Virus record (IMG/VR): IMGVR_UViG_3300033153_008490
Location: 1-52,468 of that record
Reading direction: 5' to 3' (one strand)
From: a virus
Lineage: Duplodnaviria; Caudoviricetes
DNA: 52,468 nt
The position numbers and the translations under genes were made by a program. Numbering within the stretch: position 1 is the first letter of the stretch; each line of letters opens with the position of its first letter. Positions 3,374-44,862 of the stretch are shown here, in pieces. The notes under the pieces are model-generated. The model saw only the letters and a list, made by a program, of their open reading frames with translations. It did not search any database and was not told where the DNA came from.

Positions 3374-3376
3374 ACC

Positions 3377-5755: not shown

Positions 5756-5774
5756 CGTTTTGGCTCCTACGGAT

Positions 5775-6484: not shown

Positions 6485-6543
6485 GTTTCCTATCTCCTTT
6501 TTGCAACCCTAATTGCATGTGCCAGCCGTGCGACCGACTATCA

Positions 6544-6601: not shown

Positions 6602-6617
6602 TACTGCGATTAGGAGT

Positions 6618-6785: not shown

Positions 6786-6799
6786 GGTCTGGGCTCCTA

Positions 6800-7897: not shown

Positions 7898-8158
7898 GAT
7901 GGATAAACTGAAGACCACCGGAAAAACTGGACGCACGATGATGTCAAACGCCAAACAGATCGAGTTAAACCGCCTGACGCTCGAGCGCACCCCTGATGGT
8001 CAGCCTAGCAGATGGGCGGCCCTATTCTCATATACGGAGGGGCATTACCCCCATTGCGTGGCGCGCGTCCCCTATATAAGCATGGAAAAATTTACAGCCA
8101 ATTTCGGCAATGTCCTACTAACTTACTAGGTATTCAGCGTTCCAGAGGAGAGTAACCA

Positions 8159-9379: not shown

Positions 9380-9467
9380 GTGGGTGACGGGTGGATATGT
9401 ATGACTATCAGGGGAGCTTATAACGATATGAGAGTAGCTAATAATATGAGCAGATTGGAGCTTGGCG

Positions 9468-18258: not shown

Positions 18259-18274
18259 TATAAAGGTGGTAATC

Positions 18275-18877
18275 GTGGGACCGACCGAAGTCTGTAATCA
18301 AGCGCTAGCTCGCCTCGGTGGTAGGCGGATTAATAGTTTTGATGATTCCAGTGACACTAAAACTGAAGCCGTCTATTGTAGGCTCTTTTACGAGCAGACG
18401 ATTCGCGCATTGCAGAGGTCGCATCTGTGGAGATTCGCCAAAGCTCGTGTCCAACTGTCTCAAGACACGACAGATCCGGAATTCCAGTGGACGTACGCCT
18501 ACCATCTGCCCGCTGACTTCCTCCGTCTTATTGGTGTGTACAGTGGAAGTGATTTGCTGGATGGCCGCACCTATTATAGTTATGAGTTGGAAGGGGTGCG
18601 GCTTATGACAGACGAGAGTACGGTGTATTTGAAGTACATCAAGTGGGTGCCGGAAGTGCCTAGCTGGGATGCGTTGTTTACCGATTTGGCCATTTTAACA
18701 TTGGCGCGAAAGTTGGTCATCCCCCTATCGCAGGATTTGAAATTGAAGCAGGATGTGGATAAGGACTTTGTGCTGCTGGAAAGACGAGTACGGGCAATGG
18801 ATCGCAATGAGATGAGTCATATGGGACGGGAAGATTTAAAAACGTGGCAAGACGCTCGATGGAATGATAAGGCTTAG
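18275..18877 (+). CDS. Tail tubular protein A / adaptor
   Basis: CNQAL.RLG...I.SFDD, H.WRFA..R..L, Y.LPADFLR and LA..L motifs. Confidence 0.85.
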   Translation: MGPTEVCNQALARLGGRRINSFDDSSDTKTEAVYCRLFYEQTIRALQRSHLWRFAKARVQLSQDTTDPEFQWTYAYHLPADFLRLIGVYSGSDLLDGRTYYSYELEGVRLMTDESTVYLKYIKWVPEVPSWDALFTDLAILTLARKLVIPLSQDLKLKQDVDKDFVLLERRVRAMDRNEMSHMGREDLKTWQDARWNDKA

Positions 18878-18897: not shown

Positions 18898-19182
18898 ATG
18901 AGTAAGCAAAAACACATATCCCCTTGGAAGGATAGTCAGGTATCACAGCTAACTAAGTGGCTTCAGTTAATTTACACTGCGGCATCTAATGGGCAGTACG
19001 ATTGTGAAGAGGAACTACAGTTGGAATACTGGCCCGCTGTTTCTAGTACGATTGCTCGGTACATATTGCCCCCAAACAAGGACTACTTGGTTATGTCTAG
19101 GAATGCTGATAATTATGTGACGGTGGAAATGGCAGCTACGCGTCTAAAGTGCAACTGTTTGCCAGAAGAACTTGGTCTTTAG
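18898..19182 (+). CDS. Hypothetical protein
   Basis: 94-aa ORF with AGGAGAG RBS. Confidence 0.5.
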   Translation: MSKQKHISPWKDSQVSQLTKWLQLIYTAASNGQYDCEEELQLEYWPAVSSTIARYILPPNKDYLVMSRNADNYVTVEMAATRLKCNCLPEELGL

Positions 19183-19195
19183 CAGGAGAGTAAAA

Positions 19196-19666
19196 ATGAA
19201 ACAACATGAGAAGTATGGGCTCTGCCTAGACGCCGGCTCCAGCATTGGTACGAAGAGGCCGGCGCCAGGGTTTAGCGCCTATTGTGATGTGATTGTGCCG
19301 AGAGAAGGCGACATCGTACCGGAGAATTATCACACGGCTCCGCTAGAGGATATGAGTTGCTTCAGTGATAAACAATTTGATTGGGTCCGATGTCACCATG
19401 CGATTGAGCATACGTATGATCCAGATAAGGCGTGTCGTGAGTTGATTCGTGTAGGCAAAGCAGGGATTATCTCCTACCCCCCGATGTGGTCGTGTATGTT
19501 GTTTGGGAGGAGGGATCACAATTGGTTCGTGACGGAAGATCATGGAAGACTGGTGTTTATCAAAAAGAGACACGCCAGTTACGGGGTACCGAGGTGTGAA
19601 GTGGGCACCGAGTTGAATCGCAACTTCGAGTGGAAAGACTCGTTCAAATGGCTAGTCGTAGAGTAG
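19196..19666 (+). CDS. Class I SAM-dependent methyltransferase (type 11-like)
   Basis: CLDAGS, FSDKQFDWV.CHHAIEH..DP.KAC.ELIRVGKAG. Confidence 0.8.
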   Translation: MKQHEKYGLCLDAGSSIGTKRPAPGFSAYCDVIVPREGDIVPENYHTAPLEDMSCFSDKQFDWVRCHHAIEHTYDPDKACRELIRVGKAGIISYPPMWSCMLFGRRDHNWFVTEDHGRLVFIKKRHASYGVPRCEVGTELNRNFEWKDSFKWLVVE

Positions 19667-19672: not shown

Positions 19673-20296
19673 ATGGTGATGAGTAATACAAACAAAACAG
19701 GATTGGTATTTGATGTAGGAGCATATCGTGGTGACAAAACAAAGTCCTATCTATTACAAGGACACAATGTAGTCAGCTTCGAGCCAAATCCAGTCTATGC
19801 TGCAAAACTACGTAGCCGTTTTAAGAAAAACGTAACCGTAGTTGAAAAGGCTGTTGGTTCCTTTGGTGGGACTGTAAAGCTGATGATATGCTCCAGAGCA
19901 GCAACAATATCTACTTGTAGTCCATTGTGGAAGACCGGGCGATTTGCTCAATATAAATGGGATAAAGAGATTGATGCTGAGCAAATAACGCTTGATACTG
20001 CAATATCCGAATATGGTAAACCAGACTTTATTAAAATAGATGTAGAGGGGTATGAGTACGAAGTGCTTAAAGGTCTGAGTTCTTACGTTTGTGAGCTGTC
20101 ATTTGAGTTTGCCTGTGAATTTCAATCTGCTATATCAAAATGCGTAGAAAGATTAGTTGAACTTGGATATCGACAGTTTAGTTTCAAAAACGCAAAGCAG
20201 TCTAACCTTTACATCTCATGGGGAAGTTCTTTTGAAGCGATAGATGCACTCGGTAAAATGCCTGTATGCACATGGGGAGATGTTTATGCTAAATGA
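19673..20296 (+). CDS. FkbM-family methyltransferase
   Basis: VFDVGAYRG, SFEPNP, TLD and FIKIDVEGYEYEVLKG. Confidence 0.9.
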   Translation: MVMSNTNKTGLVFDVGAYRGDKTKSYLLQGHNVVSFEPNPVYAAKLRSRFKKNVTVVEKAVGSFGGTVKLMICSRAATISTCSPLWKTGRFAQYKWDKEIDAEQITLDTAISEYGKPDFIKIDVEGYEYEVLKGLSSYVCELSFEFACEFQSAISKCVERLVELGYRQFSFKNAKQSNLYISWGSSFEAIDALGKMPVCTWGDVYAK

Positions 20297-20897
20297 GCCA
20301 GAAATGAAACCCTCTATTGCACATAGACTGACAAACGGTAAGAAAGACAAACTACAACCACGTAGACTCAAACTGAAACCCCTTGATAGGGATGTCGCCA
20401 AAGAGAATTTACTCCTAATGAAAGAAGTTCTGGACCGGCGTAACATCAAATTCTGGCTGCTATATGGAACTCTTCTTGGGGCAGTTCGTGATAAGAACTT
20501 TATTGCAGGAGACAATGATATAGACCTCGGTTTCTATTACAGTGATGCGGAAGAAGTATATAACGCACTATTGAAACTACAAACTCTTGGTTTCAACATA
20601 TTTCGTGTTACCGCAGATAGTACGTTCGTCCAGATTAGCCGAAACGGGGTTTATATTGATATAGTTCTATGGAATCAGGAGCATGAAACTATGTGGAGGT
20701 GTGGTGATTATTACGAACCGCACAACTTCTTTTCCGAATTTATAGAATGGCCGTTCCTCGATACTACATTTCTCATCCCAAAGAAATATGAGGAGTATCT
20801 AAGAGTACACTACTACGGCGAAAATTGGAAAATACCAGATCCTTCGTGCAAACATGCAAAAGTGTGTAAAATCAGCAAGAGGAGTAGGGACGCATGA
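20286..20897 (+). CDS. LicD/fukutin-family phosphotransferase
   Basis: FWLLYGTLLGAVRD..FI..DNDIDLG and IP..YEEYL...YG.NWKIP. Confidence 0.88.
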   Translation: MLNEPEMKPSIAHRLTNGKKDKLQPRRLKLKPLDRDVAKENLLLMKEVLDRRNIKFWLLYGTLLGAVRDKNFIAGDNDIDLGFYYSDAEEVYNALLKLQTLGFNIFRVTADSTFVQISRNGVYIDIVLWNQEHETMWRCGDYYEPHNFFSEFIEWPFLDTTFLIPKKYEEYLRVHYYGENWKIPDPSCKHAKVCKISKRSRDA

Positions 20898-21295
20898 TTA
20901 TCGTATATTCATCTTACGTGCTTGACATAGTTCATAAAGGACATCTTGAAATGCTACGAAACGCTAAAGCTGTAGCTGGCAGAGATGGCAGACTCATAGT
21001 AGGAATACTTACCGAGGCGGCTTGCTGCGAAAAGAAGCCCGCGCCCATAATGCCATTCGAGGAGCGAGTAGAGCTTGCTCGCAGTATAGAGTGTGTAGAT
21101 TTGGTAGTAGCACAATCAACCTATTCTACACTATCGAACATACAATCCATTAAACCTGATATACTAATGGAATCCTCATCACACGAACCAGATCCAGATG
21201 TCATATCCGCTATGAATAGGTTAGGTGGAAGAATCATCTGCATACCCTACTTTCCAGACCACTCTTCGACTAAAATTAAGGAACAGATTAGATGA
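20894..21295 (+). CDS. HxGH-type cytidylyltransferase (TagD-like)
   Basis: DIVHKGHL..L..AK, LIVGILT, K..PIMPFEER and SSTKIK. Confidence 0.88.
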   Translation: MIIVYSSYVLDIVHKGHLEMLRNAKAVAGRDGRLIVGILTEAACCEKKPAPIMPFEERVELARSIECVDLVVAQSTYSTLSNIQSIKPDILMESSSHEPDPDVISAMNRLGGRIICIPYFPDHSSTKIKEQIR

Positions 21296-21672
21296 TAGAT
21301 ACTCATCGCAAATCAATGCTCAAAAGTATAGTCTGGAGAGTGATAGGTGTATTCTGGCTTGCCGGTATAACATACGCTGTCACTCGTAGTTGGATACAAA
21401 TGTCTATAACTACACTCATTCACCATGCTGTTTTTCTCGTAGTATTCTATCTCCATGAGCGTGCGTGGGTTAGGTCGAGGATGAGGCCAAAAGTTAAGTA
21501 TGCTGTAAAAGCATTAACATACGAGGTTGTACTTGGAAACCTGATTCTCGGGCTGATAACCTATGCAGTGATACGCAATCCATATCATATGACGCTCGTG
21601 ACTGGTGTTTATATACAGTCCAAACTTGTTCTATACTTCTTTTACGATTGGCTGTGGTCGCGGAAAAGCTGA
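21292..21672 (+). CDS. DUF2061-like membrane protein (tandem domain)
   Basis: KS.LKSI.WRVIG...FYLHERAW, repeated as KALTYE...YFFYDWLW. Confidence 0.7.
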   Translation: MIDTHRKSMLKSIVWRVIGVFWLAGITYAVTRSWIQMSITTLIHHAVFLVVFYLHERAWVRSRMRPKVKYAVKALTYEVVLGNLILGLITYAVIRNPYHMTLVTGVYIQSKLVLYFFYDWLWSRKS

Positions 21673-21708: not shown

Positions 21709-23412
21709 ATGGATAGAATAGAGTGGGACAAGCACTGGATTGATAGTGTTGATATATATCTTAGAAATAAAGACCTGGCAAGGCTTCGCCCTGTATTAAG
21801 GACATATCTTCACGGAAAGATAGCAGACATAGGATGTGGAGTTAATACAATATACAGTCCTGAAAATGATATAACAGGTGTGGATATAAGCCCAGAATGT
21901 GTCCGAATAATGTCTGAGAGGTATCCGTTTGGGAACTGGGTTGTCGGCGATGTAAGAAATACAGGATTACCAGAAGCTGCTTACGATACGGTGGTCTGCA
22001 GCCACGTACTCGAACACTTCTACGACCAGACACCTATTGTAGAAGAAATGAAACGCATCTGCAAGCCGAATGGAAATATTGTCATAGTTGTGCCAAGAAG
22101 TTCTAAAGGTCCAGATCATGTCCATCCCAAGTGGGGTCCTGCCAGAATAGAAGATAGAATAGCCTGCCATCTCAAAGATGCAGAGTATGTACACCGTGCC
22201 AGAGCACACTGGATAATTACAGGAAAGAGAACATCTACAGTATCTGTAGTTACTATAGCGTGGTCGCCTAACGCTGCCAGGATGAAGGTTATGAAAGAGA
22301 GTGTGCAAAGCTTACACTCAGCAACAAAGTACCCTTATACATGGGTAGTAGTGGATAATGGTTTTGAACAGCAGACCACATTCATAAACTCACTATCTCC
22401 TGATGTTCACATAATAAATAAGAAGTTGCACAATCCGTCACAGTCACGAAACATGGGCGCTTTCGCCACATCAAGCGACTATATAGCATTCGTTGATAAT
22501 GATGTGTTGTTCTACGAAGGGTGGCTCGAAGAAAGCATAGCTATACTTGAACGGTATCCTGATAGGAAGTTTATCGTATCGTTGACAGGTTGTCCTGTTA
22601 TGAGGAGACCTAAACACCAGGCGGGAGAGATTGACGAATATAAGTTATCTAGGTTTTCAGGAAGTCTGTGTTGGGTAATGAAAAGACGCTCATTTTTAGA
22701 AATAGGAAGATGGAATGAGACTGACACTAGCGAGGATGTGGACTACTCAAACAGAGCAAGAGAAGCTGGATACCTGTTTGTGTATCGTGATGGACCTCCA
22801 TATGTAAAGCATCTTGGGCGTCGCAGGACACGCGAAACTGCTGATAGATTTGTAGACGGTGTGTGGAAAAAGCCTAGAGCTTCTTCAAAGTCTGTGGAAG
22901 GGAAGAAGCGGGCAATGCTTGTGCAATATAGCAATAAGTTCAATCTGCGGGTATTCGTGGAAACAGGAACATACAAAGGTGATACCGTAAAGGCTATGCT
23001 TTTGAGTAACCTGTTTACCGGCATATATAGTGTGGATAATGATGTTGTTCGCGCATCTAAGGCTAATCGTAGGTTCAGGTCATTTCCACATATACACTGT
23101 GCACATGGTGACAGTTCCGTATGGATGCCTGAAATACTCAAACAAATTAGCGAACCCACTCTGTTCTGGCTGGATGCCCACGCATCATATGAGCAGGTGC
23201 AAAAGTTGGGCGTTAAGACGCCGCTGCTGGATGAGATAAAAGCAATAGTATCACATAGGACAGATCATGTTATCATTATAGATGATGCTAGATATTACGA
23301 TGGCAGTCTTAAAGACTATCCTGATATCAAACAGATAAAAGAGTTGTTACCGTCAAACTGGCAATGCGAAGTGGATAACGATATTATTAGGTGTCACCAT
23401 GTTCTCAGTTAG
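21709..23412 (+). CDS. Tri-domain methyltransferase / GT2 glycosyltransferase / methyltransferase-like protein
   Basis: IADIGCG...SHVLEH, then VVDNG...RNMGA...IAFVDND, then VFVETGTYKG...GDS...FWLDAH...IIIDD. Confidence 0.85.
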   Translation: MDRIEWDKHWIDSVDIYLRNKDLARLRPVLRTYLHGKIADIGCGVNTIYSPENDITGVDISPECVRIMSERYPFGNWVVGDVRNTGLPEAAYDTVVCSHVLEHFYDQTPIVEEMKRICKPNGNIVIVVPRSSKGPDHVHPKWGPARIEDRIACHLKDAEYVHRARAHWIITGKRTSTVSVVTIAWSPNAARMKVMKESVQSLHSATKYPYTWVVVDNGFEQQTTFINSLSPDVHIINKKLHNPSQSRNMGAFATSSDYIAFVDNDVLFYEGWLEESIAILERYPDRKFIVSLTGCPVMRRPKHQAGEIDEYKLSRFSGSLCWVMKRRSFLEIGRWNETDTSEDVDYSNRAREAGYLFVYRDGPPYVKHLGRRRTRETADRFVDGVWKKPRASSKSVEGKKRAMLVQYSNKFNLRVFVETGTYKGDTVKAMLLSNLFTGIYSVDNDVVRASKANRRFRSFPHIHCAHGDSSVWMPEILKQISEPTLFWLDAHASYEQVQKLGVKTPLLDEIKAIVSHRTDHVIIIDDARYYDGSLKDYPDIKQIKELLPSNWQCEVDNDIIRCHHVLS

Positions 23413-24113
23413 GAAGTTTAACGGGAGGTTTGCAAATAAAGTGTTGCTGTATGCGACGCTTAGAGAGCGGGCACACTTCCCCGATAACTATCAATGCGTA
23501 TCATGGGTTGGGCAACAGTTGTTTGGCTTAGACGATCCGCCAAGAGAGGGGGCGTCAGATCAAATAGTGCACTACCCACTCCACAGCGATGGGTATAGCA
23601 AGCAAAAGATGCAGAGACTATTTCAGCCGACCGATAAGGTGAGGCAGTTGGTCTCACCCACGATTGACAATCTGCGCGAGGCAGGGCATACGCTTATTGG
23701 TGTACATCTACGGCGGGGTGACTATGGTACATTTAGGCGGTACAGTGCTCGGTGGTGTTTTATCGCGCCGTGCATTTGGTATGTGGAGTGGCTCAGAGCG
23801 AATCTGCGTCGCTTTCATAAGCCGATTATCATATTGACGAGTGATGAGATTGAGAAGGTGGAGCCTGAGTTTCAAGAGTTTGATATTTGTGACGATGAGG
23901 GGGGCACCTAAGTATGCGCCATACTATGCAGACTATTACGCGCTAACCCAGTGTGATGTTATGCTGATATCGAATAGTACGTTCAGCTTTACCGCATCCA
24001 TGATAAACAAACGAGCGAAGGAGTTCCATCGCCCACGATTAGGTGTACAAAAGTTAATCCCGTACAACCCTTGGGACGCACCGATTGTGTTGAAAGATGA
24101 GCGATACCCATGA
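23399..24113 (+). pseudogene. GT11 / alpha-1,2-fucosyltransferase-like gene split by a frameshift
   Basis: The N-part (23399-23911) has GRFAN and GVHLRRGDY. The C-part in the +1 frame (to 24113) has D...LTQCD...ISNSTFSFTAS. The frames join at the G6 run 23899-23904. Confidence 0.75.
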
Positions 24114-24775
24114 GTGATACGAGTGTAGTACTAATCTCTTGGTCGCCTAACGAATATAGGCGTAAGCTATTACAGCAGTCGTTGGCCTCGATACGCGAGC
24201 ACACTTACATGGATCACACGCTCATCGTCATCGACAATGGGCCGATAGAGCAACGTGAGATTATCAAGGATGCGGAGCCTGATATCCACATTATCAATGA
24301 TATTAATAAAGGGGTTGGTGTCAGTCGTAATCAAGGGGCGCGGTTGACCAAGAGTGAGTTCATTGCGTTTGTTGATAGTGATATTGGATACTTCCCTGAT
24401 TGGCTCGCTAAATGCGTAGACGTGTTGGAAAAGTATCCGGACAGGAAATTGATTGCCAGTGCGGTAAAGAACAAGCCTATGCGATTGCCAAAATATGATA
24501 GGGGTCCGCTAGGTGAGTATCATCTATATGGTCGTTGTGCAGGTATGGCAATGGTAATGCGGAGAAGTGCTTATAATGAGATCGGGCACTTCCACGAATT
24601 GAAGACCAATGTGGGACATCAATTTTGTGCAGCAGCCAAGCGATGTGGGTATATGTTCGTACATCACCCCGAGTGGGCAGGTCGTCATTTAGGCAGGAAG
24701 TCGGCGTATCATTATAAGAAACAACAGTTCTTACCGGAAACCGGTGAGTGGGTTAGTAGAAATAGATTAGCATAA
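24110..24775 (+). CDS. GT2-family glycosyltransferase
   Basis: IVIDNG, NKGVGVSRNQGA and IAFVDSD. Paralog of the GT domain of 21709..23412. Confidence 0.88.
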   Translation: MSDTSVVLISWSPNEYRRKLLQQSLASIREHTYMDHTLIVIDNGPIEQREIIKDAEPDIHIINDINKGVGVSRNQGARLTKSEFIAFVDSDIGYFPDWLAKCVDVLEKYPDRKLIASAVKNKPMRLPKYDRGPLGEYHLYGRCAGMAMVMRRSAYNEIGHFHELKTNVGHQFCAAAKRCGYMFVHHPEWAGRHLGRKSAYHYKKQQFLPETGEWVSRNRLA

Positions 24776-24789: not shown

Positions 24790-25887
24790 ATGACACAAGA
24801 GAAATGGGCACCAGCCACGATTCCCGACTGGGACGGAAAGACCGAAGTTTCAGTAGTCATTCCGTTTTGTAATGAAGGACCCAACGTCGTCTTTACGATT
24901 CAGTCGATTATCGAAGAGTTGACCGGGTTTTGCAAATTTGAAATTCTAGCGATTGATAACCAATCGGATTGGTATATTGATTGCTCGGTCAAGAATGAGC
25001 ATATGCCGTTGATGGATGGCAAGGAACGTAAGTATCCCATTCGGTCACGTGCTTTCTTTGAAGGGCCACCCAACTCAAAGCGTGCCGGTAGTACGATCAG
25101 TACTATGTTCTTCCGTAAAGGTGTGGTTAAGTATCTCAAGTACGACCAGAAGCAAGGCCACTGGAATGCGAAGAATCATGGAATCGCCAACAGTCGGGGT
25201 AAGTATCTCTTCTTTGTGGACGCCCATTGCATTATGGCGAGAGACTCGCTGCGACATATGGTAGAGTTCCTGCGCCACCCGCCGGAGAAGAAGATTGGCG
25301 GTGTCCACGCGTACATCAACTATATGCTGGATTCGCGGTCACTAGAGTACCGCCCACAGAAGGACAAGTTTTTTGGCTACCAATTCTGCACCCACCAACA
25401 GGAAGAGTATTACGAAGGGGGGAAACGGAAATTGCGCTTCCCCACGAAAGCGTATAAGGTCTGTGTTATGAGTACATGTGGCATGATGTGTCCGAGGACG
25501 GTGGTACAGGAGTTGGGCGGTTGGCACCCTGAGTTCGGTATCTACTGCGGTGGTGAAGGGTATATGAACTTTAAGCAAAGCGTTTGTGGCTATCATCACT
25601 GGATCGAGCCAAAAGCCGTTTGCTGGCATTGGGCGGAAAAGCGGGGCTATATCTGGAACCATCGTGATTACGTGCGGAATGAGCAGATTGCAGCTTTCGT
25701 CTGTGGTGGGGAACGAGCGTTGCAGTTTTGCGTAAAGGGTCGCGGGGGTAATCAAGGGTTGATTGATCTGGCTGACGACGTGCGCGAAAAGTGTACCCCG
25801 GAACGAGAGTTTATAGCGGAGAGACAATTGGAAGACCTAGAGTCCTACTTTGACCGCTGGGTTGCAACCCCTGGAGTATGGAAATGA
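24790..25887 (+). CDS. GT-A glycosyltransferase resembling polypeptide GalNAc-transferases
   Basis: SVVIPFCNE, EILAIDN.SD, G....KN.GI..SRG.YLFFVDAHC, LGGW...FGIYCGGE...NFK...CG.....P.A.C.H. Confidence 0.8.
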   Translation: MTQEKWAPATIPDWDGKTEVSVVIPFCNEGPNVVFTIQSIIEELTGFCKFEILAIDNQSDWYIDCSVKNEHMPLMDGKERKYPIRSRAFFEGPPNSKRAGSTISTMFFRKGVVKYLKYDQKQGHWNAKNHGIANSRGKYLFFVDAHCIMARDSLRHMVEFLRHPPEKKIGGVHAYINYMLDSRSLEYRPQKDKFFGYQFCTHQQEEYYEGGKRKLRFPTKAYKVCVMSTCGMMCPRTVVQELGGWHPEFGIYCGGEGYMNFKQSVCGYHHWIEPKAVCWHWAEKRGYIWNHRDYVRNEQIAAFVCGGERALQFCVKGRGGNQGLIDLADDVREKCTPEREFIAERQLEDLESYFDRWVATPGVWK

Positions 25888-26072
25888 TTATCACCTCCAT
25901 AGACAACGAGTCCACTGTAACGGGGAGTAGTGAGTACGGTGGGGAGGCTGTGCTCAACGTCAAGGAGGCGGCTAACACAGCCCTATTGCAGGAGATATTA
26001 CACTCGCTTAACAAAATTGAATATCATCTGTCGCTGATGACGGATGCAGATTTGGAAAAAGGAGCCCTATAA
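25878..26072 (+). CDS. Small hypothetical protein
   Basis: LLQEIL..L.KIEYHLS.MTD, overlapping neighbours. Confidence 0.55.
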   Translation: MEMIITSIDNESTVTGSSEYGGEAVLNVKEAANTALLQEILHSLNKIEYHLSLMTDADLEKGAL

Positions 26073-26626
26073 TGCCTACTATCAATGATGCCAATGGACA
26101 ACCGGCGACCATAAGCAGTGAAGGTCGTTTAGCAATCGACGGGGTGGCCCAATCTCCCGCCCTGCACAACAATGCTCGTCATGGTGACACGTTCTCCATC
26201 CTGGTAGACGTGACGACGGCCTCAACTGACGATGATTTCTTCTACCTGCTCAATAACGAGGACGAAGATATTATCATCTACCGCATTGAAGGGTGGTGTG
26301 ATGATGCGAGTCAAGAGATTAAGATTCTGCTCGGTGCATCAGATGCGGGTACGGCAGCAGGCGATACGCTAACGCCAGTGGCTATGAACGCAGGGAGTGG
26401 GGTAGTGCCGGATATCACCTGTACGCAGGACGCAACGGATCTGGCGATTACGGGTGGTAGTGCAATATCGCTATTGAAGTTCAACGCAGTGGCACTACAG
26501 CCGGGCATGTGGAACTACTCAGAAGGCATTGTGTTGCCTAAGAACAAACGGCTTCACATGGAAGCGGCGTTGGCCGGGCTTATCAACCTGAATATCTACT
26601 TCTACTTCGATCATACGACTGAATGA
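26072..26626 (+). CDS. Putative virion structural protein
   Basis: Acidic, beta-rich, G/T/A-rich 184 aa in the structural operon. Confidence 0.6.
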   Translation: MPTINDANGQPATISSEGRLAIDGVAQSPALHNNARHGDTFSILVDVTTASTDDDFFYLLNNEDEDIIIYRIEGWCDDASQEIKILLGASDAGTAAGDTLTPVAMNAGSGVVPDITCTQDATDLAITGGSAISLLKFNAVALQPGMWNYSEGIVLPKNKRLHMEAALAGLINLNIYFYFDHTTE

Positions 26627-26643
26627 CAGCTTGAGGCCCTACA

Positions 26644-27741
26644 ATGATTAAACATATGATCGCTGGTCCTAGTGGACTACCCACCGCTGTGGTGGATGGT
26701 GTTGAGCCTAACTCACTCGTCGTGGCGACGCGCCCGCTGAAAGAGTTTAACAGCACGACCATCTTTTTCACTAATGAAACGCATGGTGCGGCCTTAAACG
26801 TAGATGCGACAGCCGGCGGTAACGCGGACGAAATCCACGATGGGACGGATAATCCCTATTGGACAGGTTCGACGATTAGCGGAACATGGACGTTTGATGA
26901 CGCGACGTATAATCATACGGGGGGCGGCGCAAAATCAGTAGACGCAAGTGCAACAACCGGTGGCGATGAAGCGTTGTTTACGCGGGGCGTACCCATGGAC
27001 ATCAGCGGCTACGTCTCTCTATCCGGGTGGATCTACATTACCAAATGGGGCGCTACGGGTACGAAGCATGTGGAAGTGCGCGCTAGACTCGCCGGTGTCA
27101 ATGTGGGCACGGCAGTTAACATTGATGATTATGTGGATACGGGAACGCTGGGCGCGTGGTTGAAGTTTGTCATTCCGAAGGGAGCTTTAGGACTGGGCAC
27201 ACAAACCATTGACGAGTTGGTCGTCCACACGGTTAATGCGGGGGGCGTATCGCCTGACTACTATCTGGATGACCTACAATGGGAAGAGACAGGATCGCCT
27301 TTAATTTATTATGTTAGGCCAGCCCACGACACGTTGTTGTATGTTACTAAGATGAATATCTTCTACGCCGATGCGTATACGGGGATTATCACTGTAGCGG
27401 GGGCGACAGAGAACGCTACCATGCCGAGCATTCCGTATGACGGGTTTCTCAATGTTAGTGCGCTCAGCGCCGGTGTTGTCTACCAGAGACATGCTGGGAG
27501 TAAGGTGCTTGTTAGCTTTCCCATTAAACAGCAAGGTGATCTAATGTCTTTCAACGGTGCGGCGATGACGGGATATGGCTCGGATGGGGTCAACTCTTGG
27601 GTCTCTACGATGGTGGCCTATGATACGCCTATTATTTTGAGGCCAGAGAATGATGACTATATGTCGTTAACCTTGTCTGATGATCTGTCCGGCCTGCTTG
27701 ATCTGAAAGTCAGCATTGGCGGCTATGTGGAGCAAAGGTAA
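26644..27741 (+). CDS. Putative virion protein with carbohydrate-binding-like beta-sandwich
   Basis: HTGGGAKSVDAS...LSGWIYI...W.KF.IP...YYLDDLQW resembles a CBM/galactose-binding fold. Confidence 0.6.
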   Translation: MIKHMIAGPSGLPTAVVDGVEPNSLVVATRPLKEFNSTTIFFTNETHGAALNVDATAGGNADEIHDGTDNPYWTGSTISGTWTFDDATYNHTGGGAKSVDASATTGGDEALFTRGVPMDISGYVSLSGWIYITKWGATGTKHVEVRARLAGVNVGTAVNIDDYVDTGTLGAWLKFVIPKGALGLGTQTIDELVVHTVNAGGVSPDYYLDDLQWEETGSPLIYYVRPAHDTLLYVTKMNIFYADAYTGIITVAGATENATMPSIPYDGFLNVSALSAGVVYQRHAGSKVLVSFPIKQQGDLMSFNGAAMTGYGSDGVNSWVSTMVAYDTPIILRPENDDYMSLTLSDDLSGLLDLKVSIGGYVEQR

Positions 27742-27772
27742 ATAACAGTTAGCAATAATAGGAGTTTAGATT

Positions 27773-28054
27773 ATGGCCATTACGTGGAAGATTGATACTA
27801 CTAATGTGAATGTGAGCAGTGGACGAGCGACCATCAACTTTACACGAACGGACACGGAGAGTGCGCTTGCGCCCCAGAATTATCGGTTCCAAAATACGCC
27901 CATCGACTCGGGGCCGGAACGAGCGGCGCTACTCAACACAGTGAAAGGAAAGGTAGAAGAGGATGCCGACCACGATGCGGCGGTAGATGCGGTCATTACC
28001 GATTTGGAGCAGACGGGAATTAGTCATTTGGAAGCGTGGGAAGCAACACGCTAA
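27773..28054 (+). CDS. Hypothetical virion protein
   Basis: 93-aa ORF with AGGAG RBS. Confidence 0.6.
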   Translation: MAITWKIDTTNVNVSSGRATINFTRTDTESALAPQNYRFQNTPIDSGPERAALLNTVKGKVEEDADHDAAVDAVITDLEQTGISHLEAWEATR

Positions 28055-28111
28055 TAGAAAGGATGGTGTACCATCGCTAATACAGGATATGATTATGGAG
28101 CATGGGCATTT

Positions 28112-28492
28112 GTGCAGGATGATGGTGGGACCGATTGGGATGCGGATGCACTGGCTGATAACGCCACCGAGACGAGTAATACAGCTATCTCACTGGACAA
28201 GAAAGCGGCGTGTATCATCGGCCTGTTTGTCTTGGAAGACACGGGCGCGATTGATGGTGTGGTGACAGTGTACGTATTGGGTGATGGTGCGGGTGTTGCG
28301 TATGAAGAGACGACGATAGGCAGTCCATATAGTTTTACCTTTACGCCTACTGCCTCAGACACAACGTATATCCAGTTCTCCATCGATCCGAGGCACTATG
28401 ACAACTTCAAGATTGCGGTGAAAAATGAAAGCGGTCAGTCGCTGGCCGTCTCGATCAAATACAAGACCGCTGATATCCCGGTTGCGAGTTAA
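28112..28492 (+). CDS. Putative virion structural protein (frame is open back to ATC 28073)
   Basis: Beta-rich acidic ORF in the structural operon. Confidence 0.6.
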   Translation: MQDDGGTDWDADALADNATETSNTAISLDKKAACIIGLFVLEDTGAIDGVVTVYVLGDGAGVAYEETTIGSPYSFTFTPTASDTTYIQFSIDPRHYDNFKIAVKNESGQSLAVSIKYKTADIPVAS

Positions 28493-28495
28493 CCT

Positions 28496-30865
28496 ATGAT
28501 TCTCAAGCCACCTAAAGGAGCTTTGCCAGTTCGCGGCCATTGGTCTATGGACGGTTGTACCGGTCTATGGTTGATGAATGAGGGTGGTGGGAATACTGTT
28601 GCTGACCTGAGCGGGAATGGGAACCATCTATCGTTTGTGAATCCCCCGACGTGGGTAGCAAGTCAGTATGGTCCTGCTTTAGATTTTAATGGCAGTACCA
28701 ACTATATAAATACGACAGGACCAGTTGCACAAGCACCACTCGGAAACTTCACATTGTGTTCGTGGTTGCGTCCAGATACGCTTTCTGCTGATGACTGTGC
28801 AATTATTTTCTATGGCACAGATGATCTTGCATTCCTGCCAAACGACAATGCGGACGGCAATGGCGGATATCGCGTGTTCTGGCGTGACCGTGGCAGCAAC
28901 GTCGTTCTTGAGAATCCAGGACCGGATTTGTCCGGCTTATGGATTCACATGTGTTTCACGCGAGAAGACGACACGTTCACTTCATACCGCAACGGCGTTC
29001 AGGTGGATCAAGATACTTTAGGTGCCGGAACAGAAGGACCATTTACGGGGTTTCGTGTTGGGAGCTTTGAAGGGAATCAGTACTTCGACGGAACTATCAG
29101 TGATGTTGCTGTGTGGAATCGGGCCCTCATCCCCACTGAAATCACTAGCCTCTACGCTAACCCGTATCAGATGTTTGAGAACGATCCGATTGAGTTATGG
29201 ACGGCGGCGAGCGGCGGTGGGGCTGCTGCAAGTACCTACAGTCGTGGTGATTATGCGGGACTTCCGGCAGATGATACGACTCTTGAAAACGTGTTTACGG
29301 CGGGTGAAGTTGCCCAAGTTGGAGCTGATGATGGGGATAGGGTCGCCCAAACAGCAACGTCTGAATACGCAATATTCCAATTCCGTGATGATATTGGCGC
29401 GAATCTCTACGTTGATGCGACGTGGGACGGTCAAAGTGATTTAGCACCTTCAACCACAACTGTATATCTGCAAGTCTATAATCAAAACACAACTACGTGG
29501 GAGACAGTAGACAGTAATTCCGCTGCGGCAGCGAATACAGACTTCACGCTAGGCGGGTTTAAGAAGAACACCACTGATTACATAGATGGTGCGAATTATA
29601 TAGCATTTCGCATCTATCAGGATGACGACCAAGACGGCGGCATATCGTTAAAGACCGATTACTGGGATGTCTACACTTCGGCAACGACGAGTACAACATC
29701 CACCACCACGACGACTTCAACGACTACAACAACTTCGACTACGACAACTTCATCTACCACAACGAGTACAACTTCCAGTACCAGCTCTACTGCTAGTACA
29801 ACTTCGTCAACGAGTTCGACTACTTCTACGACGAGTTCTACCACTTCTACCACGAGTTCCACATCATCTACAGCGAGCACAACATCAAGTACGTCTAGCA
29901 CCACTTCTACGACGAGCAGTACATCTAGCACTGCCAGCACAACCTCTAGTACGTCCAGCTCAACCTCTAGTACCGCCAGTACCACATCGAGCACAAGTTC
30001 TAGCACGTCCAGCACCGCGAGTACTACGTCTAGCACAACAAGCTCATCATCCAGTACGGCAAGTACGAGTACATCCTCTAGTACTAGTAGCACAGCGAGC
30101 ACTAGTACGACTTCCAGTACGACCAGTTCATCTAGCACCGCTTCCACTTCCTCGTCGTCATCCAGTACTACATCTTCGGCAACATCGTCCAGCACCAGCA
30201 GTACTACGTCATCATCTTCATCCACGGCGTCTACTAGTAGCACATCCTCGTCCACATCATCTTCGTCCAGTACGGCAAGTACGTCCAGTACTAGCAGTTC
30301 CACCAGCTCAACCGCGTCCACATCAAGCACTTCGTCCTCCAGCAGTAGTACCGCATCTACGTCAAGTACCAGTTCATCTACCAGTAGTTCAAGTAGTACA
30401 GCTAGCACATCCAGTACCAGTACCGCCACATCGTCCAGCACTTCGTCCAGTACAACCTCCTCCACCACGACAACGGGTGCGCCTGTCACCTACGCAAAGG
30501 AGATATGGCATAACATGGAAACGGATACAACATTATACGCATGTCGATTTACTGAAGCGGGGGATGTCTTCTTAGCAGACGGCTCATCGTCGGAAGAGTG
30601 GGGTACGGGGGGACACACCTCCGATGACTATGCCGTAGCGATGGCCGAAGTGGATGATAGTGGGTATTACCATGCTCGGTTTGACGCAGAGGGTAATATT
30701 TCCGACGGCCTCTACAACGTTGTCATATATAAACAAGTGGGTCTATATCCGAAAGATGCTGACCCATCGGTAGGACAAGGGGAGATAGATTGGCGCGACG
30801 GGGAAGAGTTTACAAAAGGCGTGCTCCATGCCGATCTCAAACAGCGCACAGGACCGTGGATATAG
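28496..30865 (+). CDS. LamG/concanavalin-A-like domain virion protein with 267-aa mucin-like Ser/Thr stalk
   Basis: GLWLMNEGGG.TV.DLSGNGN...ALDFNG...YFDG.I.DVAVWNRAL...EI..LY (LamG), followed by the S/T/A tract 29675-30475. Confidence 0.88.
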   Translation: MILKPPKGALPVRGHWSMDGCTGLWLMNEGGGNTVADLSGNGNHLSFVNPPTWVASQYGPALDFNGSTNYINTTGPVAQAPLGNFTLCSWLRPDTLSADDCAIIFYGTDDLAFLPNDNADGNGGYRVFWRDRGSNVVLENPGPDLSGLWIHMCFTREDDTFTSYRNGVQVDQDTLGAGTEGPFTGFRVGSFEGNQYFDGTISDVAVWNRALIPTEITSLYANPYQMFENDPIELWTAASGGGAAASTYSRGDYAGLPADDTTLENVFTAGEVAQVGADDGDRVAQTATSEYAIFQFRDDIGANLYVDATWDGQSDLAPSTTTVYLQVYNQNTTTWETVDSNSAAAANTDFTLGGFKKNTTDYIDGANYIAFRIYQDDDQDGGISLKTDYWDVYTSATTSTTSTTTTTSTTTTTSTTTTSSTTTSTTSSTSSTASTTSSTSSTTSTTSSTTSTTSSTSSTASTTSSTSSTTSTTSSTSSTASTTSSTSSSTSSTASTTSSTSSSTSSTASTTSSTTSSSSSTASTSTSSSTSSTASTSTTSSTTSSSSTASTSSSSSSTTSSATSSSTSSTTSSSSSTASTSSTSSSTSSSSSTASTSSTSSSTSSTASTSSTSSSSSSTASTSSTSSSTSSSSSTASTSSTSTATSSSTSSSTTSSTTTTGAPVTYAKEIWHNMETDTTLYACRFTEAGDVFLADGSSSEEWGTGGHTSDDYAVAMAEVDDSGYYHARFDAEGNISDGLYNVVIYKQVGLYPKDADPSVGQGEIDWRDGEEFTKGVLHADLKQRTGPWI

Positions 30866-30875
30866 GTAGCAACTA

Positions 30876-32378
30876 ATGGCTATTGTAGACTTTACAGCAG
30901 GTTGGACAGAAGTAGACACCAGTGGCGTTATTACCGTCACGTCCGCCACTCGTCTGGACTACGATGGGGTGCCGCGCGATGATGATGCGCAGTATTACAA
31001 AGACTACGGCGCGGCCTACTTCTCTGGCGACTTCACGCATACGTTTAAATGCCAAATCAACTCCGCTGGGTCTACCACTTTCGCGGAGGTGATTCCGTGG
31101 GCGTTGTCAAATACGGCGGGGGGTGATAGAACAACGTGGATAGGCAACAGTGAAGATTTTGTCATGTTCATGCTGTACGAGGGGGCGGAAGGCGCTTACG
31201 CACTGGAGTCACGTCTGTATGAAGGCGGGGTGAAGGTTGACTCAGATGTGTACGTCTGCTCCGCCAACACAACCTACTATATCAATGTTACACGTAATTA
31301 TGATGGGGGGGCCAATTCAACCGGTCGTTACACCTTCTACATTTGTACGGGTAATTATCTGGACGACCCAGGCTCCACCGTCGTAGATACACACGTGTTG
31401 GACGCTTCGGTTGGGGAGCAAAACTCGTTCCAATATCTCTACGCATGTCAAAACCGCAATGACGCTAGTGCGGGTAACACTATCGATGGGTTTATTGAAG
31501 ATTTGGATTTACACGGGGGGACTACGTCAACCACGAGTTCCTCCACAACGACGAGTACCAGCAGTACCGCCAGTACTAGCTCCACCTCATCGTCTACTAC
31601 CAGCTCAGCTTCAAGTTCATCTACCAGCTCGTCTACGTCTACGACCACGTCGTCCAGCTCCACCGCTTCAACGTCGAGTAGTTCTAGTTCCACCACCTCC
31701 ACAAGTTCAACTGCTTCAACATCAAGTAGTTCTAGTTCTACCACGTCTACATCAAGTACAACCAGCTCAACAGCTAGTTCTACATCCACCACTACGTCGT
31801 CAAGCTCATCCACATCCTCATCCTCCTCATCCACTACCACCACGTCGCCCGGCGAAACAGCGATACAGTGCACCAGTGGAACTTACGATATTACCAGCCA
31901 AATTACCATCTTCACGTACACGAACAATACTACCCAAGTGCAAATATGCCAAGGCGTAGTCTCCTTCGGTGATGGGATTAACGACCTAAGCGGTACCGCC
32001 GTCACAATGGAGATGACGTTGGGGTTTGGTGGCCAAACCAATCAGCCTAATGCGCAATACGTCTCCTTCGATACGACAACGCGATCATCTATCTTTACTC
32101 AGCAATTCCCTCTACCTGTGGGCCAATCCGTTACGTTCAAAGTTAAGAGCCAAAACGCTTCCGACTCTTCCGTGTGGATACGCGCGTGTTTGTATGAGGT
32201 CGGCGTGGAATCTATTCGGGATGACTTGGAAGATATTATCGACGATCTCACGGCATTGTTTGCCAGATCTCAGGTACTCGTCAACACGTACGATACGACG
32301 GGTGCGGCTGGTAAAGGTGCGGGGGTCATTCCAACAGGACAGTCAACCAACATTGGTATATATCCAGGGACTACATAA
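30876..32378 (+). CDS. Virion protein with 109-aa mucin-like Ser/Thr linker
   Basis: Two beta-rich domains separated by the S/T/A tract 31521-31847. Confidence 0.8.
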   Translation: MAIVDFTAGWTEVDTSGVITVTSATRLDYDGVPRDDDAQYYKDYGAAYFSGDFTHTFKCQINSAGSTTFAEVIPWALSNTAGGDRTTWIGNSEDFVMFMLYEGAEGAYALESRLYEGGVKVDSDVYVCSANTTYYINVTRNYDGGANSTGRYTFYICTGNYLDDPGSTVVDTHVLDASVGEQNSFQYLYACQNRNDASAGNTIDGFIEDLDLHGGTTSTTSSSTTTSTSSTASTSSTSSSTTSSASSSSTSSSTSTTTSSSSTASTSSSSSSTTSTSSTASTSSSSSSTTSTSSTTSSTASSTSTTTSSSSSTSSSSSSTTTTSPGETAIQCTSGTYDITSQITIFTYTNNTTQVQICQGVVSFGDGINDLSGTAVTMEMTLGFGGQTNQPNAQYVSFDTTTRSSIFTQQFPLPVGQSVTFKVKSQNASDSSVWIRACLYEVGVESIRDDLEDIIDDLTALFARSQVLVNTYDTTGAAGKGAGVIPTGQSTNIGIYPGTT

Positions 32379-35215
32379 TGAAGACGCCAGTCGTATCGTT
32401 CAATAGTGGAGAATTATCGCCCATGATCGACGCCAGGAGCGACGTAGATAAATATCGCGCCGGGTGCCGAACACTGGAAAATATGATTCCACGAATCTAT
32501 GGCCCGGCAACGCGCCGCCCCGGTACGAAATACATTGACACGTGTGGCGGGGAAGCGCGACTTATCCCCTTCATCTACAGTAATAGTATCGCCTATATGT
32601 GTCTCCTGGAAGACTCGGTGATGTATTTCTATTACAATGGAGGACGGTTGAATGATGGGGGGGGAGCGCGTGTGAGTCTGACCACCCCCTACGCGGCTGG
32701 GGATCTCGCTGAAATCCAGTACAAGCAATCCAACGACGTATTGTGGTTGATACATCCAGATTATGCGCCACGCAAACTAATCCGCACGAGTGCGACCACG
32801 TTTACGCTAACCTCTATCGTGTTTAACAATGGGCCATTTCAAAAGCGGCACGACCTTTCGCATGATGATGGTGTAACACTAACACCTTCCAGCACTTTCG
32901 CGGTGGCCGATGATGATATATCCAACACGGCGAGTGCATATTTTGCCAGCAGTGAATATGACGACAATATGGACGCCTCGAAAGCGTTTGATGATAGGAC
33001 GACGGGTGCGGGTTGTTATTGGCAAACCGCAGTCAATAGTTACGATGACCAATATGTGGGTTGTCAATTTGCCACTGGGAAGGTTATAAAACAAGTTCGT
33101 ATTGCGCCATTCGCCACCAAACCATCCATTTCACTATTTGACGCATGGGCCTACAACCCGCGCTATATCCAAATCGACGCTTCCAATGATGGCGTCACTT
33201 GGACGAAGATATCGATTAACGATTGGGGGATTAACTCTAGCGCATGGAACACCGATGGGGCTGAACTTGATAATGTTACCAGTCCAGGTACGTGGGCACA
33301 GTTAAAGTTGGACAACACGACGGCATATACATATTGGCGGGTCTACGTCCATGAAACATGGGGCACGCTCGTTCTCCGCATTAACGAAATTGAGTTCATT
33401 GCGAACACAACCACATTTGAAGATGAAGTGACGCTAACCGCTTCCGAGGCCATATTTGACGCAGAGCAAGTAGGATCACTCTTCTCCTTAACCCAACAAC
33501 GTGAGAATACGAACGTCTCCGGCTCGTCCACGAATCCGACCACAGGTTACACAGACGACATCCTCGTGGAAGGCGCGTTTACGTTCACTACGCACGGCAC
33601 GTGGACAGGGACGGTGTTACTAGAGCGAAGTATTAATAGGCAAGTCTGGGAGACGTTCCGCAAGTGGACATCAGATGCGGATTTGAACGTGCAATACACG
33701 GGACAGGAAGACCACACCAACGTATACTATCGCATCAACGTCGAGTCCATGTCGGCTAATACGTCTCCCGGCACGGGGGGCATGGCCAGCAAGATCAAGT
33801 ATGATATCAGTGTGAATAGCTCTACGCAGACCGGTATCTGTCGTGTGATTGCGTACAACAGCACCACTGAAGTGGAGGTGGACATACTCAAACCCTTCGC
33901 ATCGACCGATCCATCCGAACGATGGGCGGAAGGAAGTTGGTCAGACTATCGTGGATGGCCCCGCACCATGACGTTCTTCGAGAATCGCACGGTTTACGCC
34001 GGGAATGCAAACCAATTGCAAACCGTTTGGCTCAGTGCGATTGATGATTTTGAAAACTTCGCCGTGGGTACGAATGATGATGAGTCGTTTAGCCTCACCA
34101 TGTCGAGTGATACGAGGAATGCGATTCAATGGATTAGTGCGTTGGACGCTCTCCTTGTGGGTACGGCGGCAGGTGAATGGCGTATTCGTTCCAGTAGTGA
34201 TGATGAGCCACTGACTCCCAGCAACTTCTCTTTCAAACAGCAATCTAGTCGTGGGTCTAAGTCGCTACAAGCACTCCCCGCCAACGAGGCGATATTGTTC
34301 GTAGACTCGGTGGGCCGCAAAATACGAGAAGTCGCCTATGATGGAAGTCGGTATAAGTTCGTTGCGAGGGATTTGACGGCGCTGGCCGAACATATTACCT
34401 CCGGCGGCGTCACTACAATAGCACTACAAAAGAATCCAGACCCCATCCTATGGTCCGTAGCAGATAATGTGTTGCTTAGCATGACCTACGAGCGCGAGCA
34501 AGAGGTAATTGCGTGGGCGAGACATCCCTTTGAAGGGGCGGATACGGCGGGTGTGATTACGGATAACGTCGGGCCAAACGACGTAGCGGTTATACCCGGT
34601 ACGAATGAGGATGAGGTGTGGCTTATTGTCGGTCGTGTGATCGGTGGGGCGCTTGTTCGTCATTTAGACCAGATGCAGCCGAGGAATGTAGATGCCCAAG
34701 AAGACATGTGGTTTGTGGACGGGGGGTTGGATTACGACAGCACCGCCACGACTACGTTCAGTGGGTTGGATCACTTGGAAGGTGAAGAGGTTTACATCTT
34801 GGCCGATGGCGCGGTACAACCACCGAAGACAGTGGTGAGTGGTGCGATTACGCTATCCGAATCAGCAAGTCGTGTTATCGTTGGTCTGCCCTTCCGCTAT
34901 ACCCTACAGCCTATGCGGTTTGATATGGAGATACAGGGCACGACGAAGGGGACCCTGAAACGGTTTGCCGAAGTGGTAGTCAGCTTCTATCGTACGTCCA
35001 ACGCCAACTATGGTGAAGATGTGGATCATCTCTTTGAAATAGATTGGCGCGGTGAAGAAGCGTATGGAACCGCCCCTGCACTATACACGGGTGATAAGAT
35101 TGTTGCACATGAAGGTGGGTTTAGTGCCGAGGATCCGTTTATCATCACTGGAAATGACCCCTTACCTTGTACGGTTCGCGCGATTATCCCCCGTGTGAAC
35201 GTTGGAGGACGATAA
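32378..35215 (+). CDS. Tail tubular protein B / nozzle with inserted F5/8 type C (discoidin) domain
   Basis: SFNSGELSP...RSD...Y...C..LENM.P...G.A.RRPGT, GWP....F..NR and AWARH. The insert reads ASSEY....ASKAFD...W...YIQIDASNDGVTW...Y.YWRV...INEIEF. Confidence 0.88.
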   Translation: MKTPVVSFNSGELSPMIDARSDVDKYRAGCRTLENMIPRIYGPATRRPGTKYIDTCGGEARLIPFIYSNSIAYMCLLEDSVMYFYYNGGRLNDGGGARVSLTTPYAAGDLAEIQYKQSNDVLWLIHPDYAPRKLIRTSATTFTLTSIVFNNGPFQKRHDLSHDDGVTLTPSSTFAVADDDISNTASAYFASSEYDDNMDASKAFDDRTTGAGCYWQTAVNSYDDQYVGCQFATGKVIKQVRIAPFATKPSISLFDAWAYNPRYIQIDASNDGVTWTKISINDWGINSSAWNTDGAELDNVTSPGTWAQLKLDNTTAYTYWRVYVHETWGTLVLRINEIEFIANTTTFEDEVTLTASEAIFDAEQVGSLFSLTQQRENTNVSGSSTNPTTGYTDDILVEGAFTFTTHGTWTGTVLLERSINRQVWETFRKWTSDADLNVQYTGQEDHTNVYYRINVESMSANTSPGTGGMASKIKYDISVNSSTQTGICRVIAYNSTTEVEVDILKPFASTDPSERWAEGSWSDYRGWPRTMTFFENRTVYAGNANQLQTVWLSAIDDFENFAVGTNDDESFSLTMSSDTRNAIQWISALDALLVGTAAGEWRIRSSSDDEPLTPSNFSFKQQSSRGSKSLQALPANEAILFVDSVGRKIREVAYDGSRYKFVARDLTALAEHITSGGVTTIALQKNPDPILWSVADNVLLSMTYEREQEVIAWARHPFEGADTAGVITDNVGPNDVAVIPGTNEDEVWLIVGRVIGGALVRHLDQMQPRNVDAQEDMWFVDGGLDYDSTATTTFSGLDHLEGEEVYILADGAVQPPKTVVSGAITLSESASRVIVGLPFRYTLQPMRFDMEIQGTTKGTLKRFAEVVVSFYRTSNANYGEDVDHLFEIDWRGEEAYGTAPALYTGDKIVAHEGGFSAEDPFIITGNDPLPCTVRAIIPRVNVGGR

Positions 35216-44852: not shown

Positions 44853-44862
44853 GAGAGCAACC

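Follow-up and report, generated by a model that had tools for sequence, protein, structure and literature searches.

Introduction

Mucin-type O-glycosylation, begun by glycosyltransferases (GTs) of family GT27, is treated as a eukaryotic process based in the Golgi. Gram-positive bacteria possess serine-rich-repeat systems (GtfA/GtfB), in which dedicated GTs encoded nearby O-glycosylate very long Ser-rich repeats in the cytoplasm; initiation there falls to a GT-B (GT4) pair that acts on secreted adhesins. To our knowledge, glycosylation of phage virions has so far been documented only for mycobacteriophages. Here we describe a GT27-like, lectin-less GT encoded in IMG/VR virus record IMGVR_UViG_3300033153_008490, the whole of which (52,468 bases, hereafter the window) was analysed. 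The same genome encodes three proteins with long Ser/Thr tracts that are the enzyme's candidate acceptors.

In the mycobacteriophages, phage-encoded GTs modify virion proteins, with glycans attached to capsid and tail-tube subunits at their C-termini (Freeman et al. 2023, as relayed in PMC12619734). The comparisons below draw on a survey of GT-A enzymes (Taujale et al. 2020, PMC7185993). There, GT27 and GT60 are retaining families that O-glycosylate polypeptide Ser/Thr, and their clade includes the inverting family GT7 and the chondroitin-polymerase domain. GT60, found only in prokaryotes and protists, is placed beside GT27 in the GT-A tree. The change from DxD to DxH is restricted to these two families, and in GT27 a C-terminal His helps to hold the metal. 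Inverting GT-A families use the xED-Asp as their base, whereas it varies in retaining ones; some GT2 subgroups are without it.

Placement among GT-A glycosyltransferases

Comparisons with solved structures point to the GT27 ppGalNAc-Ts as the nearest relatives of the enzyme. First, a family profile of 28 sequences (A1) was searched against all PDB sequences, and the best 15 of 35 distinct matches are all ppGalNAc-Ts (E 3.2e-18 to 8.7e-13), in alignments that cover profile positions 5–279 of 330 and take in DxH, GGE and a late His. Heparosan synthase (2e-10), TarP (2.5e-8) and SpsA (1.4e-6), the best non-GT27 matches, align in the N-terminal nucleotide-binding half only. A more divergent profile of 35 sequences, extending down to 22% identity (A2), reproduces this order, with GT27 accounting for 15 of 24 matches (4e-18 to 4e-11) and TarP following at 7.5e-8.

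Second, a template-free AlphaFold2 model of the enzyme (predicted local distance difference test, pLDDT, 91.2; predicted template modelling score, pTM, 0.91) retrieves GalNAc-T chains at Foldseek ranks 1–46, TarP first appearing at rank 47. VIA-align of the model against 48,161 chains places GalNAc-T1 on top (Z 28.1, 292 aligned residues, root-mean-square deviation 3.0 Å, 20% identity) and Toxoplasma GalNAc-T3 (TgGalNAc-T3) second (Z 26.7); the next fold relatives after the GalNAc-Ts are WrtF (Z 19.1), K4CP (19.0) and SpsA (17.9). The modelled enzyme lies, among solved structures, next to the catalytic domain of the eukaryotic GT27 ppGalNAc-Ts, and aligns to residues 114–422 of GalNAc-T1 only.

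Third, the candidate catalytic residues are shared. The DxH of the enzyme aligns to the DCH, DAH or DSH of the GalNAc-Ts in both profile alignments, and its H280 to the His of '...VGHVF' in GalNAc-T4. Residues N57, D144, H146, G254, E256, H280, Y287 and N297 are invariant in A2. Because D144, H146, G254, E256 and H280 are among them, the motifs by which a preliminary description of this DNA had recognised the reading frame, all of which are present in the order it gave (Table 1), are not a chance resemblance. The representatives scored comprise 148 listed (P0094–P0241), 119 of them at least 250 aa long; within these 119, D144 and H146 are each kept in 116, E256 in 115, H280 in 118, and all four together in 113. 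Residue 257, at the xED-Asp position, is Gly in the enzyme and Asp in none of the 28, 35 and 119 sequences; Asn occupies it in 58 of the 119 representatives, which gives GGEN as in GT27. Within the WGGEN motif, where the enzyme reads CGGEG, GGE is invariant and the first-position W occurs in a minority of the family. On the criteria of PMC7185993, the combination of DxH, late His and no xED-Asp makes the phage family look like the retaining GT27/GT60 side of the clade.

The enzyme is soluble and has no lectin domain. The only Pfam domains detected are of GT2 type (PF00535, E 5e-19, 69.2 bits against a curated cut-off of 23.3), no ricin lectin match was obtained, and the protein stops at residue 365. 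It has no transmembrane segment or signal peptide, its N-terminus is polar, and its maximum Kyte–Doolittle 19-mer value is 1.06; with no hydrophobic segment, it is read as soluble. Both features had been claimed in the preliminary description and hold up. So does its GT27-like interpretation, as a likeness only: a profile comparison and a Foldseek search, of the kinds that it had called for, put GT27 as the 15 best solved relatives and GalNAc-Ts at the top ranks, VIA-align and the DxH, GGE and late His agree, and the best structural placement is with GalNAc-T1, not among polysaccharide GT2s (Z 28.1 versus 19.1).

Distribution of the enzyme family

The enzyme family is mostly viral. A 5.8-billion-protein set holds 93 relatives, all on short metagenome contigs, and the best 120 matches listed from a profile search of that set are family members only; a 1.84-billion-protein set yields 398 cluster representatives at E ≤ 1e-3. 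When the enzyme and two relatives were compared by tblastn with 50,697 phage records, the sole match was gp2 of Tunturiibacter phage Tunturi_4, which is annotated 'glycosyltransferase', lies between the terminase and portal genes and carries a DNH motif; no mycobacteriophage matched. A one-peptide-pattern scan of 185,579 species genomes gave no relative, at a sensitivity so low that absence is not implied. In BFVD, uncultured-phage proteins auto-named 'Glycosyltransferase, GlcNAc' are weaker fold neighbours (E about 1e-9). The neighbouring Atlas clusters are viral GT2 first, then bacterial GT2 and Glyco_transf_7C.

Several relatives have fused domains. One distant relative, P0211 (423 aa), has an N-terminal PqqD domain joined to its GT domain; we take PqqD to be a peptide-binding element of pathways for ribosomally synthesized and post-translationally modified peptides (RiPPs). 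Another, P0194 (2213 aa), contains five GT2-type domains, and in locus L039 the GT27-like domain is fused to a methyltransferase (561 aa).

Association with Ser/Thr-tract proteins

The enzyme family is strongly linked in genomes to proteins with long Ser/Thr tracts. The family set comprised 55 viral loci with enzyme relatives (25–56% identity), with up to 10 kb on each side, and the control set 80 viral loci drawn by random 14-mer. An ORF (open reading frame) of at least 150 aa containing a 60-aa window with at least 80% Ser/Thr occurs in 24 of the 55 family loci and in none of the 80 random loci (Fisher p 1e-11, the relatedness of loci being ignored). Lowering the threshold to 60% gives 26/55 against 1/80, and a 20-aa window at 85% or more gives 32/55 against 1/80. 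In a lineage-matched control of 24 loci related through tail tubular protein B (31–41% identity), neither the enzyme (0/24) nor a tract (0/24) was found.

Tract-positive loci are spread across the enzyme clusters, with 4/4 positive at 40% identity, 7/9 at 50% and 19/39 at 70%, so the association is not one clade counted repeatedly. The tract ORFs lie on the strand of the enzyme in 23 of the 24 loci and carry varied globular domains, often LamG. Since they often run into contig ends, the tract counts are probably low.

Three such proteins, with near-pure Ser/Thr(/Ala) tracts of 101–272 residues, are encoded in the window (Table 1). None has a signal peptide or transmembrane segment. The 273-aa protein is encoded just upstream of the large terminase, and its N-terminal domain is conserved in locus L004. 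The 789-aa and 500-aa proteins are encoded downstream of the enzyme. The preliminary description had put the enzyme gene directly upstream of the structural and mucin genes; the order is right, although five small or unassigned ORFs (25878–28492) intervene before the Ser/Thr-rich gene at 28496. A tblastn comparison with the 55 family loci gave no relatives of the ORFs at 25878–32378, and the fibre-like ORFs at 26072–32378 have no Pfam or PHROG match except LamG; as a result, the virion location of the fibre-like ORFs is read from their position only.

Gene content of related loci

Pfam was run on 150 ORFs from nine tract-positive loci. In two of the nine, L002 (the closest relative, 56% identity) and L041, the enzyme homologue is the sole GT that Pfam detects, with tract genes and virion genes (for capsid and SU10-type adaptor) beside it. 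The remaining seven add GT4 or GT2 enzymes, methyltransferases, sugar epimerases or dehydrogenases, and sulfotransferases. Polysaccharide deacetylase genes, present in three of the nine, hint at an N-acetylhexosamine. A common order of tail tubular protein A, methyltransferase and GT27-like enzyme is seen in L002, L003 and L004, and in L002, L039, L041, L044 and Tunturi_4 the homologue has a capsid, adaptor or portal gene close by. In the window, likewise, the GT genes form an island inside the virion-gene module, between tail tubular proteins A and B. These locus contents, together with the PqqD fusion, favour an enzyme that is initiating and directed at polypeptide.

Two of the family loci have sulfotransferase-family genes and C-methyltransferases beside the GT27-like gene (L019, 7119–7847; L026, 5455–6009), which suggests sulfated or C-methylated sugars on the Ser/Thr-tract proteins of some phages. 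In a third, the glycan island includes a UDP-glucose/GDP-mannose dehydrogenase gene split by an intein that carries a LAGLIDADG homing endonuclease (L006, 5980–7947).

Proposed role and alternatives

The analysis establishes the fold of the enzyme, its Mn2+-binding triad of D144, H146 and H280 and its solubility. Its role is probably to start O-glycosylation of mucin-like virion proteins in the cytoplasm; the peptide acceptor is deduced from the genomic association with Ser/Thr-tract proteins, and the donor too is an inferred part of the proposal. It would be made late, together with the virion proteins, in the host cytoplasm, and would bind a UDP-sugar, most likely UDP-N-acetylhexosamine, through Mn2+ at D144, H146 and H280; that the sugar is GalNAc in particular is rather unlikely. 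The first sugar would be passed with retention to Ser/Thr hydroxyls in the unfolded tracts of the 273-, 789- and 500-aa proteins, where about 446 Ser/Thr are potential sites. The GT2s, GT11-type enzyme, methyltransferases and LicD/cytidylyltransferase pair of the island would then extend and decorate the glycan. The predicted product is a set of stiff, protease-resistant, mucin-like bottle-brush stalks that bear lectin-like (LamG) heads on the virion.

Several observations weigh against this proposal. The enzyme is just 14–20% identical to GT27, and its CGGEG departs from the GT27 'WGGEN' at the W and the N. Pfam and the source annotations assign it to GT2, and source labels read 'glycosyltransferase involved in cell wall biosynthesis'; given that identity and these annotations, we call it GT27-like and not a demonstrated GT27 member. 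GT27 enzymes may match PF00535 too, so the Pfam match may not discriminate. The best NCBIfam match is PgaC/IcaA, far under its cut-off, the best PHROGs match is a GtrB-like O-antigen conversion family (6.8e-4), and a single-sequence phmmer search of PDB ranks TarP (1.5e-3) and an archaeal GT2 above GalNAc-T1 (0.01). Such single-sequence searches cannot decide the placement; the NCBIfam and PHROGs matches are generic and sub-threshold. At the level of the locus, at least four other GT domains lie in the window, any of which might initiate, and the LicD, cytidylyltransferase and GT11 neighbours are also typical of teichoic-acid or lipopolysaccharide (LPS) decoration. Within the DNA searched (up to 10 kb on each side), 31 of the 55 family loci show no long Ser/Thr ORF, and Tunturi_4, the sole cultured-phage relative, lacks a long Ser/Thr tract over the first 45 kb of its 88 kb.

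The presence of several GTs in seven of the nine related loci is also compatible with a different division of labour, in which the enzyme would extend a glycan by acting on a protein-bound sugar, and initiation would fall to the GT2 at 24110, the methyltransferase–GT2 fusion or the DxH enzyme at 44812. GT27 shares its clade with the sugar-acceptor GT7 and chondroitin-polymerase domain (PMC7185993), and K4CP is a fold neighbour (Z 19.0). We nevertheless consider this unlikely. The DxH and the missing xED-Asp fit GT27/GT60 and not GT7 or GT2-CHS, and there is a gap in Z from 28 to 19. Moreover, the homologue is the sole GT found beside the Ser/Thr-tract genes in L002 and L041 and, by construction of the search, the one GT common to all 55 loci.

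The Pfam assignment, the cell-wall labels, the weak GtrB-like match and the LicD, cytidylyltransferase and GT11 neighbours would suit a conventional GT2 for polysaccharide, teichoic acid or LPS with which the phage alters the host surface (for example in superinfection exclusion), with the Ser/Thr proteins as unrelated linkers. Such a role is quite unlikely for an enzyme that has no membrane segment and whose best structural neighbour is GT27. The virion operon encloses the island, which has tail tubular proteins A and B on either side, no flippase or polymerase was seen among the ORFs scanned, and the co-occurrence with Ser/Thr tracts would be left without explanation. Glycosylation of small, RiPP-like peptides or of phage DNA bases in place of virion proteins is highly improbable: a relative is fused to a PqqD domain, a nucleoside 2-deoxyribosyltransferase-like gene is present in the window and DNA-hypermodifying phage GTs are known (Pyle 2024, via PMC12619734), but among the ORFs scanned there was no gene for a precursor peptide, a hydroxymethylase or base modification, and both the gene position and the Ser/Thr association indicate large structural proteins.

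Genome context and the glycan island

The window is a podovirus genome, rated 100% complete by CheckV. PHROG matches, all on the + strand, mark the small terminase (7144), large terminase (10544), portal (13223), major head protein (16453), tail tubular proteins A and B, internal virion proteins and a tailspike (41872), and recombination and nuclease genes occupy the minus-strand arms. GC skew follows gene orientation and switches strongly between 1–8000 and 8000–46000 of the window: the minus-strand arms show values of about -0.3 to -0.4, the + operon values of +0.1 to +0.34. The insertion between tail tubular proteins A and B has two parts, the glycan island and then fast-evolving ORFs (Table 1).

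Table 1. Features of the window discussed in the text, with positions in the 52,468-base record.
Feature	Position	Strand	Remarks
GT27-like, lectin-less, soluble GT-A glycosyltransferase	24790–25887	+	ATG start, 365 aa; closes the nine-gene glycan island
Motif SVVIPFCNE	24850–24876	+	Within the enzyme ORF
Motif FEILAIDNQS	24937–24966	+	Within the enzyme ORF
Motif SRGKYLFFVDAHC	25192–25230	+	Includes D144-A-H146 (DxH), 25219–25227
Motif ELGGWHPEFGIYCGGEG	25510–25560	+	Includes G254-G255-E256 (GGE), 25549–25557
Motif FKQSVCG		+	After ELGGWHPEFGIYCGGEG in the enzyme
Late (C-terminal) His, H280	25627–25629	+	Within the enzyme ORF
789-aa candidate acceptor	28496–30865	+	N-terminal LamG/ConA-like domain; tract of 272 residues, 251 of them Ser/Thr (aa 392–663, DNA 29669–30484); 126-aa C-terminal domain
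500-aa candidate acceptor	30876–32378	+	113-residue Ser/Thr tract (aa 214–326, DNA 31515–31853); directly upstream of tail tubular B
273-aa candidate acceptor	9462–10283	+	C-terminal 101-residue Ser/Thr tail (aa 169–269, DNA 9966–10268)
Tail tubular protein A	18266–18877	+	PHROG; left border of the glycan/fibre insertion
Tail tubular protein B	32378–35215	+	PHROG; right border of the glycan/fibre insertion
Methyltransferase	19172–19666	+	Island accessory gene
FkbM methyltransferase	19673–20296	+	Island accessory gene
LicD-family transferase	20244–20897	+	Island accessory gene
Cytidylyltransferase, small	20894–21295	+	Island accessory gene
DUF2061	21292–21672	+	Island accessory gene
567-aa methyltransferase–GT2 fusion	21709–23412	+	S-adenosylmethionine (SAM) methyltransferase (aa 34–150), GT2 (aa 177–360), C-terminal weak Methyltransf_24
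GT11 (alpha-1,2-fucosyltransferase family)	23399–24113	+	Two overlapping frames, 23399–23911 (170 aa) and 23841–24113 (90 aa)
GT2 glycosyltransferase	24110–24775	+	221 aa; Pfam; candidate glycan extender
Second DxH-type GT2, 'FRIDAHC'	44812–45888	+	358 aa; downstream of the tailspike
Nucleoside 2-deoxyribosyltransferase-like gene	51281–51817	-	PHROG 355, E 5.5e-10; adjoins an HNH endonuclease

The island's accessory genes give some indication of the glycan. The LicD-family and cytidylyltransferase genes suggest its decoration with a phospho-alcohol of the choline, glycerol or ribitol phosphate type; pairing of this kind belongs to eukaryotic O-mannosyl glycan synthesis. The GT2 next to the enzyme is a probable glycan-extending enzyme. 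The two GT11 frames are joined by a shift at a G6 run (23899–23904), and since the frame change coincides with this run, the split may mean that the assembly is wrong, that the gene is a pseudogene or that it undergoes phase variation by slippage.

Two further genes lie apart from the island. The second DxH-type GT2 shares 24% identity with the enzyme's N-terminal part and is matched by the A1 profile at 1.5e-7; its own PDB matches are weak (chondroitin synthase 2.4e-4; GalNAc-Ts 5.5e-4 and 1.2e-3), and a copy 39% identical occurs in L003. The nucleoside 2-deoxyribosyltransferase-like gene has a possible role linked to nucleotides or to DNA modification, unrelated to the finding on the enzyme.

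Comparison with known glycosylation systems

What emerges is a family of soluble, GT27-like enzymes that is widespread, largely viral and linked in genomes to phage proteins resembling mucins. In a literature search whose coverage left subscription journals largely outside, no account was found of a GT27-like enzyme in phages or of an association between such an enzyme and Ser/Thr-tract proteins. If the proposed role is correct, the family would offer a simple route to densely O-glycosylated polypeptides in the bacterial cytoplasm, would suggest that glycan-coated fibres are common in environmental phages, with a bearing on adhesion, stability and immune recognition, and would, as an outgroup, allow the origin of GT27/GT60 to be tested. 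More tentatively, and with doubt on our part, many uncultivated tailed phages may run cytoplasmic mucin-type O-glycosylation for themselves by means of a lectin-less GT27/GT60-like initiator, which would coat Ser/Thr tracts of 100–1000 residues in virion fibre proteins and so yield 'viral mucins'; this viral and prokaryotic clade would also represent the type of soluble enzyme that gave rise to the Golgi ppGalNAc-Ts of eukaryotes.

Serine-rich-repeat systems differ in their machinery and substrates, since the initiator proposed here is of GT-A, GT27-like type and the acceptors are phage virion proteins. GalT1 (5hea), presumably a member of that pathway, is a weak match to the A1 profile (7e-6). 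Like the mycobacteriophages, the present phage would direct its own GTs at virion proteins; in contrast to the modified subunits of those phages, the candidate acceptors are Ser/Thr tracts of 100–270 residues in fibre-like proteins.

GT60, the Dictyostelium/Trypanosoma type of polypeptide alpha-GlcNAc transferase, resembles the phage enzyme in its DxH, its lack of a lectin domain and, on the role proposed here, its O-glycosylation of Ser/Thr. PF11397 ('GlcNAc'), which we take to be the Pfam model for GT60, has no match in the enzyme (E ≤ 0.1), in 35 relatives (E ≤ 0.01) or in the whole genome (E ≤ 1). No GT60 entry was seen among the PDB matches listed, so the structure comparison does not separate GT27 from GT60. 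GT7 and the chondroitin-polymerase GT2 domain belong to the same GT-A clade as GT27, and K4CP is a fold neighbour, but they are inverting and keep the xED-Asp (PMC7185993), whereas in the phage family DxH is present and the Asp is missing.

The closest likeness is to GT27 itself, whose members GalNAc-T1, T2, T4, T10 and Toxoplasma GalNAc-T3 are the nearest solved relatives by both profile and structure. DxH, GGE(N), a C-terminal His ligand and the absence of an xED-Asp are common to both, as is the link to Ser/Thr-tract proteins. Unlike the GT27 enzymes, however, the phage enzyme is encoded by a bacteriophage, has neither a ricin-type lectin domain nor a type II anchor, would act in the cytoplasm and not in the Golgi, and has diverged to 14–20% identity, with CGGEG in place of WGGEN.

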